A stretch of DNA of 32,000 nucleotides, from contig CP149973.1 of assembly GCA_029269845.2 (NCBI GenBank), forward strand, positions 510,001 to 542,000, read 5' to 3'. This stretch comes from Opitutia bacterium KCR 482. GTDB taxonomy: Bacteria > Verrucomicrobiota > Verrucomicrobiia > Opitutales > Intestinicryptomonadaceae. The notes beneath the pieces were generated by a model, which had not been told where the DNA came from, made no database searches, and was given only the letters and a program-made list of their open reading frames with translations. The translations under genes and the position numbers were made by a program. Position 1 is the first letter of the stretch; each line of letters starts with the position of its first letter. This document shows positions 28,595 to 30,266 of the stretch, one piece after another.

Positions 28595-28667
28595 GCCAGC
28601 TTAGCTCAGTTGGTAGAGCAGTTGATTTGTAATCATCAGGTCGTCAGTTCAAGCCTGACAGCTGGCT
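28595..28667 (+). tRNA. tRNA-Thr (anticodon UGU)
   Basis: Hand-folded 73-nt cloverleaf. Acceptor GCCAGCT/AGCTGGC, D arm GCTC-AGTTGGTA-GAGC. Anticodon arm GTTGA-TTTGTAA-TCATC has one U:U mismatch. Variable loop AGGTC, T arm GTCAG-TTCAAGC-CTGAC, discriminator T. CCA is not encoded. Confidence 0.85.
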
Positions 28668-28672
28668 TACTT
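28625..28672 (+). repeat. Direct repeat copy 1 (attL-like): tRNA-Thr positions 31-73 plus 5 nt
   Basis: ATTTGTAATCATCAGGTCGTCAGTTCAAGCCTGACAGCTGGCTTACTT recurs at 30184..30230 with one C deleted. Confidence 0.85.
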
Positions 28673-28676
28673 AAAA

Positions 28677-28711
28677 ATAAGGGACTTCCGCAAGAAGTCC
28701 TTTATTTTTTT
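28677..28711 (+). terminator. Rho-independent terminator after tRNA-Thr
   Basis: ATAAGGGACTTC-cgcaa-GAAGTCCTTTAT (12-bp stem) followed by a T-run. Confidence 0.6.
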
Positions 28712-28797
28712 ACACTTACAGATGCGCGAAGTTGTACCGATTGCCCGCATGATATACCCTTAAAAAACACATTTGGGGCAAAAAAAGCTATATTTTT

Positions 28798-28816
28798 GCC
28801 TACCTGCCGCCTACCA
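28798..28816 (+). repeat. 19-bp direct repeat, copy A (GCCTACCTGCCGCCTACCA)
   Basis: Perfect copy at 30127..30145. Followed by TTTGCGGGC, whose reverse complement GCCCGCAAA follows copy B. Confidence 0.8.
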
Positions 28817-28889
28817 TTTGCGGGCGTATAGTAAACAAAATATCAATAGGTAAAAGCGGGCTGCATAAATGCCCGAGTCTCTATATCAA

Positions 28890-28902
28890 GGTTTATTAAA
28901 CC
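28890..28902. promoter_or_regulatory. 13-bp perfect palindrome GGTTTATTAAACC, copy 1 (downstream of the RHH gene)
   Basis: 6-1-6 palindrome. An identical copy lies at 29132..29144. Confidence 0.4.
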
Positions 28903-28925
28903 GCGTTTTGCGCTATTTATCATCT

Positions 28926-29096
28926 TTATCCTTTTTTTACTCGCTTTATCTCCGCGACGTATTGAGTTATTGCGTCGCGGATTATATCCGACAAAGCCAC
29001 ACCGTATTTTTGCGCCAAAACACGAGCGTCCGCCACAAGCTTCTTTTCGAGTGCAGCAGATATTCGTTCTTTTTTTGGCGATAATTTGTTGGGCAT
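28926..29096 (-). CDS. Ribbon-helix-helix (CopG/Arc/MetJ-type) DNA-binding protein, 56 aa
   Basis: Below the ORF-track size cutoff and found by hand translation: MPNKLSPKKERISAALEKKLVADARVLAQKYGVALSDIIRDAITQYVAEIKRVKKG. It shows a basic tail, a short beta-strand (ERISAAL) and two helices, which is the RHH_1 pattern. The listed 103-aa ORF 28843..29154 is a different frame of the same strand and looks spurious. Confidence 0.6.
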   Translation of the reverse strand: MPNKLSPKKERISAALEKKLVADARVLAQKYGVALSDIIRDAITQYVAEIKRVKKG

Positions 29097-29131
29097 TGTC
29101 AATCATTTTTTGATTGTCGGCAAAAAAAGCA

Positions 29132-29144
29132 GGTTTATTAAACC
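29132..29144. promoter_or_regulatory. 13-bp perfect palindrome GGTTTATTAAACC, copy 2 (in the divergent RHH/exonuclease promoter region)
   Basis: Directly abuts CTTGTCAAC (29144..29152). That sequence reads TTGTCA on the plus strand and TTGACA on the minus strand, so the -35-like boxes are shared. Confidence 0.4.
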
Positions 29145-29214
29145 TTGTCAACACTTTTTTTAAAAAATAAAAAAACTTTTGACGCCGCCGAAAAAAATCG
29201 GGAAAATAAAAAAT

Positions 29215-30123
29215 ATGAAATATTGTTTTTTAGACTTCGAAACTGCAAACAGCGAGCGCGAATCCATTTGCGCCGTGGGTATATCAGTGCGCGAAAACGG
29301 CGCTGAGATTGACTCGTTTTACTCACTTGTAAAACCGACGCCGTTTAGGCTCGACCAACGCAACCAATCCGTGCACGGTATTGAGTATACCGACCTCGTG
29401 GACGCACCCGAATTTTGGAAAGTTTATGCGCTCTTTGAACACCACCTAAACGGCATTGTGCTTACCCATAATGCCGCATTTGATTTGAGCTGCCTGTCTG
29501 CCGCACTAGACGCAAACCACATAATATATCCTGATTTTTTGTATATAGATACATTAAAAATTGCCCATAAAAAATACGAGCACGCCAAACTCTCCGACCT
29601 TGCGGAAATCTACGGCGTGCCTTATAAATACGCGCATAACGCACTTGCCGACGCCCGAATGCTCGGCGAAATCTACGAACGCATGCGCCTTGATTTTTGC
29701 CCCGAAATTTGCGGGTACGACATGCAACGCTTTAAGCCGAACCCTTTCGATTTTCCGACGTATCCGCAACCGACATCGCAAAAACAAAAGACGAGCAAAG
29801 ACGCCGCGCCGCAACAAAAGACAGTTGACGACCTGCCGTTTGCAGTCCCCGACAAAATCGAGTTTGCGGAAAAAAAATTTGTCGTGACAGGAGAGTTTGC
29901 AACCATTCCGCGAAAACGCGTCGAGGAGATTGTGCTAAAAAACGGCGGAACGTTGCAATCGGCGGCGAACTCAAAGAGTAGTTATATCATTGTTGGCAGC
30001 GTGGCGGCGAGCGGCTGGGCAAATGGCAATTACGGGCGAAAAATCGAGCAAGCTTTGAAGCAGCCGAATATCATTTTTGTTTCGGAGTCAGTCCTGAAAA
30101 ATTTCCGCGAATTTACCTTATAA
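29215..30123 (+). CDS. DEDDh 3'-5' exonuclease (DnaQ/epsilon-like) fused to a C-terminal BRCT domain
   Basis: ORF 29179..30123 trimmed to ATG 29215, 302 aa. ExoI FLDFETAN, ExoII LTHNAAFDLSCL, ExoIII HNALADARMLGEIY. A low-complexity linker (PQPTSQKQKTSKDAAPQQK) follows. The BRCT-like tail reads KKFVVTGEFATIPRKRVEEIVLKNGGTLQSAANSKSSYIIVG...IIFVSESVLKNF. Codon usage is AT-richer than in neighbouring genes. Confidence 0.85.
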   Translation: MKYCFLDFETANSERESICAVGISVRENGAEIDSFYSLVKPTPFRLDQRNQSVHGIEYTDLVDAPEFWKVYALFEHHLNGIVLTHNAAFDLSCLSAALDANHIIYPDFLYIDTLKIAHKKYEHAKLSDLAEIYGVPYKYAHNALADARMLGEIYERMRLDFCPEICGYDMQRFKPNPFDFPTYPQPTSQKQKTSKDAAPQQKTVDDLPFAVPDKIEFAEKKFVVTGEFATIPRKRVEEIVLKNGGTLQSAANSKSSYIIVGSVAASGWANGNYGRKIEQALKQPNIIFVSESVLKNFREFTL

Positions 30124-30126
30124 CCC

Positions 30127-30145
30127 GCCTACCTGCCGCCTACCA
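30127..30145 (+). repeat. 19-bp direct repeat, copy B (GCCTACCTGCCGCCTACCA)
   Basis: Starts 4 nt after the exonuclease stop. Part of a local hairpin GCCTAC-N14-GTAGGC. Confidence 0.8.
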
Positions 30146-30183
30146 AAGCCCGCAAACGTAGGCAGAACAGCAAACCACATTTA

Positions 30184-30230
30184 ATTTGTAATCATCAGGT
30201 CGTCAGTTCAAGCTGACAGCTGGCTTACTT
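30184..30230 (+). repeat. Direct repeat copy 2 (attR-like): degenerate tRNA-Thr 3' half
   Basis: 47 nt, identical to 28625..28672 except for loss of one C in the T-loop/stem junction (TTCAAGCTGAC against TTCAAGCCTGAC). There is no matching 5' half, so it is not a functional tRNA. Confidence 0.85.
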
Positions 30231-30237
30231 TTAACAG

Positions 30238-30266
30238 AAAGGGTTTCCGTTCGGAAACCCTTTTTT
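30238..30266. terminator. Palindromic terminator hairpin after the tRNA fragment (possibly bidirectional)
   Basis: AAA-GGGTTTCCG-tt-CGGAAACCC-TTTTTT. It also lies 62 nt downstream of the minus-strand gene ending at 30328. Confidence 0.55.

Follow-up and report, generated by a model that had tools for sequence, protein, structure and literature searches.

A two-gene islet at tRNA-Thr of a gut Opitutia bacterium, very probably the remnant of a ~30-kb temperate phage

Layout of the islet

The DNA analysed here, hereafter the window, is a stretch of 32,000 nucleotides from Opitutia bacterium KCR 482 (assembly GCA_029269845.2, contig CP149973.1, positions 510,001‒542,000), which the proteins flanking the locus identify as a human-gut Verrucomicrobium of Candidatus Merdousia sp. 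A functional tRNA-Thr(TGT) gene lies at 28595‒28667 on the plus strand (called by ARAGORN; 66 bits against the Rfam tRNA family), and it is followed by a 1.56-kb islet with two genes. Direct repeats of the tRNA 3′ half bound the islet at both ends, and the tRNA itself is intact. The 48 bp at 28625‒28672 (plus strand, hereafter the attL core) recur at 30184‒30230 (plus strand, hereafter the attR core), where one C is missing from a CAAGCCTG run. The GC content of the enclosed DNA (28673‒30183) is 0.447, compared with 0.573 in the left flank and 0.566 in the right flank. Behind the attL core stands a phage-type hairpin that replaces the tRNA terminator (28673‒28709, −18.2 kcal/mol, z −7.4), and behind the attR core stands the native tRNA-Thr terminator hairpin, a different fold (30236‒30265, plus strand, −18.1 kcal/mol, z −5.2). 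A first-pass annotation of this DNA had reported the duplication with its 1-nt deletion, an AT-richer interior and a separate terminator hairpin for each tRNA copy, and all three agree with our analysis.

From left to right, the islet consists of attL, a phage P′ arm, the 5′ end of an integrase gene (int), the point of a ~28-kb deletion, a gene for a ribbon-helix-helix (RHH) regulator, a gene for an exonuclease with a BRCT domain (exo-BRCT), a phage P arm and attR. The enclosed genes (int stub, RHH, exo-BRCT) stand in the order expected from phages. The P′ arm (28673‒28827, plus strand) contains the hairpin, a 19-mer and TTTGCGGGC, and ends at the position of the int start codon. The P arm (30124‒30183, plus strand) contains the same 19-mer, an AA spacer, GCCCGCAAA and, next to the core, a segment of the Thr type. 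Both copies of the 19-mer GCCTACCTGCCGCCTACCA are perfect (28798‒28816 and 30127‒30145), and no other match with up to three mismatches occurs in the 32 kb (shuffled expectation 0.01). Each copy is made of two GCCTACC heptamers 11 bp apart, one such pair per arm. The perfect repeats had already been described, together with a 9-mer or its reverse complement behind each; the 9-mer abuts the left copy directly (TTTGCGGGC, 28817‒28825) and follows the right copy after the AA spacer (GCCCGCAAA, 30148‒30156).

The integrase stub at 28828‒28874 (plus strand) comprises the first 16 codons (IVNKISIGKSGLHKCP), which match the N-termini of the phage integrases P0096, P0098 and P0118 (MVNKISIGKSGLCKCP / MSNKISIGKSGLHKCP). 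It reads ATA GTA AAC AAA ATA TCA ATA GGT AAA AGC GGG CTG CAT AAA TGC CC, the start codon having changed from ATG to ATA. The homology to int stops at 28874, and homology to the DNA 3′ of the phage RHH gene starts at ~28877; these breakpoints place the deletion junction at 28875‒28877. Since the integrase is reduced to 16 codons and has lost its start codon, the islet is defective and not an active prophage. The earlier remark that the segment encodes no recombinase holds for an intact gene, but the beginning of a tyrosine integrase gene is present. The other two genes are as first annotated. The RHH gene on the minus strand (28926‒29096) encodes a CopG/Arc-like regulator of 56 aa from its ATG, or 58 aa if begun at an upstream TTG, and matches Pfam RHH_3/RHH_1 and phrog_876 (transcriptional repressor). 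The exo-BRCT gene (29215‒30123, plus strand) encodes a 302-aa fusion of a DEDDh 3′-5′ exonuclease and a BRCT domain (Pfam RNase_T and BRCT).

Empty sites and phage attachment sites

Metagenomic contigs of the same species were found via the neighbouring DMT_6 protein, and their flanks are 97.4‒99.7% identical to the window; 10 places, drawn from 23 contigs, are shown. Among the matches listed, the locus occurs in three states. It is empty in L003, L005, L006, L009 and L010, it carries the same islet in at least three places besides the window (L007 and two similar places), and it carries a different insert of ~2.9 kb in L001, L002, L004, L008 and three similar places. The empty sites of L003, L005, L009 and L010 read tRNA...GGCTTACTT|TTAACAGAAAGGG, which joins 28672 to 30231 exactly (also given as ...GGCTTACTT|TTAACAGAAAGGGTTTCC...), and in empty sites the native hairpin lies directly 3′ of tRNA-Thr. 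The first-pass annotation had proposed an attL/attR scar of site-specific integration and a search for tRNA-Thr joined directly to 30231 and onward. These conspecific sites provide that junction, and the 48-bp core is the same in the attL of the window, in the attB of the empty sites and in phage attP. The empty allele of L006 has a 20-bp deletion in the native terminator hairpin of the tRNA (L006 10498‒10520).

Homologues of exo-BRCT led to the 30‒31-kb phage contigs L011/L012 and L040, which carry RusA, SSB, Rad52, MazG, head-closure and tail genes. In these phages, exo-BRCT (82‒84% aa identity to the window) is directly upstream of attP and int, with a gap of at most 270 bp between exo-BRCT and the 372-aa integrase open reading frame (ORF). 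The GC content of the islet is below that of the phage contigs as well (0.49‒0.53). The window is 87.9% identical to L011 at 28669‒28874 (L011 9018‒9222), including the first int codons, and 87.7% identical at 29114‒30175 (L011 7898‒8964). From ~28877 it matches L026, whose RHH counterpart shares ~80% aa identity with that of the window.

In the phages, attP is ~310 bp long with 19-mers on both sides of the core, whichever accessory gene (exo-BRCT or one of 223 or 248 aa) is its neighbour. Its first half runs from the accessory gene through the P arm (19-mer and AAGCCCGCAAAC) and ~20 bp to the tRNA 3′ half. The second half is the P′ arm, with the hairpin GGACTTCCnnnnGAAGTCC and a T-run, ~90 bp, the 19-mer with TTTGCGGGC, and two bases, and 11 bp separate the end of the 19-mer from the int ATG. 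These arms are common to the window and to L011, L024, L026 and L040, and the cores are taken from tRNA-Phe in L011, L026 and L040 and from tRNA-Asn in L024 and L025. The exact 48-bp Thr core, which spans the tRNA 3′ half from the anticodon loop to 5 nt beyond the acceptor end, is found in L032‒L034 (29.0‒30.3 kb), located by a pattern scan of the metagenome collection. There, P arm, core and P′ arm are contiguous and followed by a full integrase, and the core-proximal flanks match those of the window. When 30121‒30183, 28625‒28672 and 28673‒28880 of the window are joined in this order, the product is colinear with six phage attPs except for a handful of 1-bp gaps near the int start. The annotation had suggested a search for larger relatives with a tyrosine integrase next to the same repeats, and these 29‒31-kb phage contigs, in which attP precedes the 372-aa integrase, are of that kind. 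An integrated, intact relative is seen in L023 (NCBI Merdousia metagenome-assembled genome (MAG) GCA_034173335.1), where tRNA-Phe is followed by the P′ arm, int and late genes.

Comparison of the attP regions of L011, L024‒L026, L032‒L034, L037, L038 and L040 reveals that at least five tRNA 3′ halves serve as attP cores (Thr-TGT, Phe-GAA, Asn-GTT, Lys-TTT and one more). In L038, ARAGORN calls the attP region (2771‒2842) as a complete tRNA-Lys(TTT), beyond the 3′ half. In IMG/VR, the P-arm 17-mer gave one chance match only and the exo-BRCT protein scan gave no match. A degenerate arm pattern gave five chance matches in unrelated phyla and none in Merdousia among the GTDB representative genomes. 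One arm-pattern match, CGCCTACCAAACGCCTACCAAATCGGTAGG in an Acidimicrobiia MAG (L030 ~4050‒4200), has the 3′ end of an integrase gene on one side and a tRNA on the other; it is probably a coincidence. A full-text literature search for 'Merdousia' returned no paper on its phages. The contigs define a temperate phage family of Ca. Merdousia/Opitutia that is previously undescribed.

The 372-aa ORF was identified as an integrase by PHROGs, NCBIfam, catalytic residues and structure. It matches phrog_1 (E = 1e-18), residues 106‒340 give an Xer-like match, and R230, K263, R318, H340 and Y351 are invariant across 43 homologues; Pfam gave no match at usable E-values. In the AlphaFold model (pLDDT 89.7), the longest structural alignments are with full-length lambda Int (1z1b/1z1g), and residues 6‒49 are modelled as three strands and a helix, the predicted fold class of the arm-binding domain of lambda Int. 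The catalytic and core-binding parts of the integrases are ~90% identical among the Thr, Phe and Asn types.

The 19-mers occur on both arms of every intact attP in the GCCTACC phages and are kept across three cores. In the Thr-core phages L032‒L034, both arms carry TGCACAC(C/T)TTTTGCACACCA at the 19-mer positions, and the TGCACAC motif is also present in L022, L037 and L038. The N-terminus of Int differs in parallel, reading ...GL.KCPFEVRW..GERKRKRF in the GCCTACC phages and ...GN..CP.EVR...GK(L/R).RKRF in the TGCACAC phages. The integrase P0101, from a phage with TGCACAC arms, is 86‒91% identical to that of L011 over residues 36‒372 and 66% identical over residues 1‒35. The motif switch is one event that affects all four heptamers, and from this one co-switch we consider that the 19-mers are probably arm-type sites for the small N-terminal domain of the integrase. 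With 11 bp between the P′ heptamer pair and the int start codon, these heptamers may have a second role in the autoregulation of int. Lambda Int is a heterobivalent tyrosine integrase with the arm-type sites P1, P2 and P′1‒3. The phage system resembles it in the extra N-terminal three-strand-plus-helix domain predicted by the model, in the short motif repeats outside the core on both arms and in the joint change of arm motif and Int N-terminus. Unlike lambda, each arm has a single heptamer pair with its members 11 bp apart, and the P′ pair is 11 bp 5′ of the int start. Sequence identity to lambda Int is ~15%, and the likeness is drawn from sequence and model.

We consider it very probable that the islet descends from a ~30-kb temperate phage, which integrated at tRNA-Thr and became a defective prophage through one internal deletion. 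It is read as a stump because the integrase stub meets DNA from downstream of RHH and because the arms rebuild an attP. Of the three readings offered by the annotation, that of a stump left by the decay of a larger element is thus borne out, with a ~30-kb temperate phage as that element and the integrase stub still in place. In the proposed sequence of events, a phage of the ~30-kb family infecting gut Opitutia (Ca. Merdousia) would have entered tRNA-Thr(TGT) by tyrosine-integrase recombination between the attP core and the identical 48-bp attB. Integration would have put the P′ arm and int beside the tRNA as attL, with the phage hairpin replacing the tRNA terminator, while RHH, the accessory gene and the P arm would have ended at the far side as attR. 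A single internal deletion of ~28 kb would have fused int codon 16 to the DNA just 3′ of RHH, and it would have taken the rest of int together with all late, replication and recombination genes. The 3′ part of tRNA-Thr is now the phage-derived copy of the core, and the attR core is the displaced 3′ half of the host tRNA.

Several observations weigh against this origin. The Thr core, GCCTACC arms and exo-BRCT were not found together in any intact phage, and the window is a mosaic of modules, each from different phages. A full-length prophage at tRNA-Thr occurs in none of the 10 places shown, which were taken from 23 contigs. The 3′ end of attL in the second carrier, L007, is different (GGCTCCACTTT...) and would have to stem from a later exchange or from a crossover that differed slightly. 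The binding of the integrase to the 19-mers, finally, is deduced from a single co-switch event.

The cryptic prophages of Escherichia coli K-12 are defective prophages at tRNA and tmRNA genes. The islet is like them in integration at the 3′ end of a small-RNA gene, direct att repeats, massive gene deletion and the survival of one regulatory and one accessory gene. It is unlike them in its extreme reduction to 1.56 kb, two genes and 16 int codons, in the completeness of both attP arms and in its host, a gut Verrucomicrobium of an uncultured lineage. As a genome scar it is of an ordinary kind, but it is unusually well documented, with attB, attP, attL and attR all known from natural sequences. 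The phages exchange four units in modular fashion (the tRNA core, the arm motif with the Int N-domain, RHH with its palindrome, and the accessory gene on the attP side), which makes them a convenient natural system for studies of tyrosine integrase retargeting.

The two genes and the decay of remnants at tRNA-Thr

In the phages, RHH is the leading gene of a leftward early operon. In the islet, RHH and exo-BRCT diverge from a control region at 29097‒29214, and the palindrome AGGTTTATTAAACC occurs twice, 3′ of RHH (28889‒28902) and within the control region (29131‒29144). L026, which has the same RHH allele as the window, has the same AGGTTTATTAAACC palindromes, and L011 and L024, which have the other allele, have a GGTGTATAATCACC palindrome instead. 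Because the palindrome changes with the RHH allele, the AGGTTTATTAAACC copies are candidate RHH operators, and we infer from these sequences that RHH may act at the GGTTTATTAAACC palindromes. A promoter-like TTGACG-17-GAAAAT for exo-BRCT lies at 29179‒29207, and its −35 element is overlapped by an inverted repeat, GTCAACACTTTTTTTA / TAAAAAAACTTTTGAC (29147‒29183), which is kept in phages with differing RHH alleles.

The catalytic residues D7, E9, D90, H141 and D146 are invariant in exo-BRCT. The dN/dS of exo-BRCT is 0.14‒0.28, which mostly reflects evolution within phages, as the window and L007 differ by too few changes. Between RHH and attP, where exo-BRCT lies, gene content is variable, and other phages carry unrelated genes of 223, 248, 111 or 196 aa there. 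Since it assorts independently of the RHH allele, exo-BRCT is an accessory gene and not an immunity partner. A role as immunity repressor, prompted by a position like that of P2 C, was rejected, as exo-BRCT and the 223-aa alternative each pair with either RHH/palindrome allele. In PADLOC, the protein matches the candidate model PDC-S48 (E = 2e-21; residues 2‒209 against 5‒217 of the 411 profile positions) and a Cas-associated DEDDh model of generic DEDDh character; no validated PADLOC defence model was matched over its full length. It is also similar to NCBIfam PRK06195, but its 137 bits are under the family cut-off of 373. An exact-protein lookup gave no record, and a literature search returned nothing on PDC-S48, on DEDDh and BRCT fusions in prophages or on BRCT/DnaQ-like anti-phage proteins. 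Genes with the same two domains lie beside int in pneumococcal prophages, as does the 'exonuclease' directly upstream of int in Streptococcus phage IPP43, and near attR in Moraxella phage Mcat9. They share the architecture and the int/att-side position of exo-BRCT at 24‒27% identity over 86‒97% of its length. A DEDDh-BRCT nuclease thus occurs beside int/att in temperate phages of Verrucomicrobia, Firmicutes and Moraxella, which marks it as a recurrent gene of lysogeny modules.

L007 has the internal junction seen in the window. The two differ by 1.5% in the islet, 0.3% in the left flank and 1.1% in the right flank, and the lesions in attR are private, namely the deleted C in the window, an anticodon G>A change in L007 and a 2-nt deletion in L013 of a sister species. 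Because the carriers have diverged by 1.5% and the lesions are private, the remnant is not brand new, and ongoing recombination is not keeping its att sites identical. The earlier view that the event is not ancient fits the polymorphism of the insertion within the species, but the distance between carriers, each with its own attR mutation, qualifies it.

Further remnants at tRNA-Thr were found in a sister host (L013, L017 and L022; 92.5% aa identity to the window in nadB). L013 retains int codons 1‒88, RHH, exo-BRCT and attR, L017 a 230-aa gene and exo-BRCT, and L022 a full int alone. Between L013 and L017, dS is 0.06 for nadB and 1.4 for exo-BRCT. Because the exo-BRCT alleles differ this much between close sister genomes, the comparison indicates that phages have repeatedly and independently integrated and decayed at this site. 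These remnants were found by a search with exo-BRCT, and preferential retention of this gene cannot be claimed from them. Vertical inheritance from the common ancestor of the two hosts is unlikely, since dS is 1.87 for exo-BRCT compared with 0.5‒1.0 for flanking genes; it is also disfavoured by the different left ends of the deletions (int codon 16 versus codon 88). In L017 (7319‒8897), the 230-aa ORF and an exo-BRCT of 56% identity seem to form a two-gene operon, the ORF overlapping with the exo-BRCT start, and the locus has neither RHH nor an attR copy. The 230-aa protein is related neither to the neighbour of the Mcat9 exonuclease nor to integrases. In L013 (7364‒7656 and 8885‒8984), the P′ arm beside the 88 int codons is of the TGCACAC type and the P arm is of the GCCTACC type, a mismatch that points to two different prophages having recombined at the same att site.

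Alternative origins and possible functions of the islet

The direct repeats alone would be compatible with a local tandem duplication of the tRNA 3′ end that involves no mobile element, but the empty sites, the identical core in phage attP, the foreign GC content and the phage homology of all enclosed DNA make this origin close to negligible. Scarcely less improbable is a two-gene cassette recombined into a 19-bp site within an older att scar, another of the readings offered by the annotation. Perfect 19-bp direct repeats do surround the two genes, and the L001-type inserts part from the window right after the left 19-mer. However, intact phages have both 19-mers flanking the core in one ~310-bp attP, the DNA inside the left 19-mer is the 5′ end of int and no cassette end, and in L023, of which the left end was read, an intact int and then the late genes stand directly behind the P′-arm 19-mer. 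The 'double bracket' is therefore the ordinary P and P′ arms of one attP, and this reading falls. The remaining reading, a mini-element moved by an integrase encoded elsewhere with the 19-mers as arm-type sites, stands for the arm-type sites, which lie on both arms and switch with the Int N-terminus, but not for an active mini-element. Cis-mobilisable elements (CIMEs) are derived from integrative and conjugative elements (ICEs) in Streptococcus thermophilus. Like them, the islet is flanked by att sites, lacks an integrase, is the product of an internal deletion and is in principle a substrate for a related recombinase; unlike them, it is derived from a phage and not from an ICE, no accretion or movement is seen at the contigs read, and its attR is decaying. 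If the islet were excised and re-integrated by the integrase and directionality factor of a related phage, the empty sites would be excision products. Its arms with both 19-mers are intact, phages with GCCTACC arms or the Thr core are present in human-gut samples, and the site is polymorphic within the species. On the other hand, the islet was seen at one location only in the contigs read and with a shared internal junction in the window and L007, and the independent lesions in the attR cores, including the 1-nt deletion of the window, look like drift in an unused site. The divergence of the islet between carriers also exceeds that of the left flank, a 1.5-kb circle would be without replication or packaging functions, and the empty sites equally fit sites that were never occupied. 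Mobilisation in trans is possible but unsupported, and we regard such an element as quite improbable.

The defective prophage may have persisted as a stump through a benefit to its host, with RHH as a homo-immunity repressor and/or exo-BRCT as a nuclease acting on incoming DNA. The intact exo-BRCT gene with its invariant catalytic residues and low dN/dS, the PADLOC candidate and Cas-associated matches, the genes of like architecture beside int/att in pneumococcal and Moraxella prophages and the highly divergent exo-BRCT alleles in the sister-species remnants are consistent with such domestication. However, these loci were found with exo-BRCT as the query, other remnants at the site do without it (int only in L022, unrelated cargo in the L001 type), the dN/dS stems mainly from phage evolution with the comparison of the window and L007 uninformative, and the PADLOC match is driven by the generic DEDDh domain. 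We therefore hold domestication to be a tentative possibility that is rather doubtful. Still less likely, in our estimate, is the wider proposal that RHH and exo-BRCT form a domesticated lysogeny unit for defence or anti-defence and that the remnant is, in addition, a live substrate for the exchange of arms and cargo with incoming phages. If true, a live substrate would explain the mosaics, that is, the attL of L007, the mismatched arms of L013 and the L001 cargo beginning right after the 19-mer, and exo-BRCT would be a prophage-encoded defence or anti-defence function retained by hosts after prophage decay.

The ~2.9-kb AT-rich insert of L001 (10640‒13500; also in L002, L004 and L008) is equivalent to 28817‒30326 of the window. 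The P′ arm is common to both as far as a variant of the 19-mer, GCCTACCTGCCGCCTAGCA, beyond which the insert has unrelated ORFs (125 aa, a zinc-ribbon/transmembrane ORF, a 352‒360-aa transmembrane protein and 131 aa). The cargo showed no similarity to the fetched phage loci by blastn or tblastx and no match in Pfam, PHROG or PADLOC. The insert lacks an attR and takes the place of the native terminator and of the intergenic DNA as far as the stop codon of the deoxyribosyltransferase gene. In the window, an exact 15-mer, GGCAAAAAAAGCTAT, occurs at 28557‒28571, ~25 bp 5′ of tRNA-Thr, and again at 28777‒28791, just 5′ of the P′ 19-mer and the integrase start, and it may be a shared promoter-like element.

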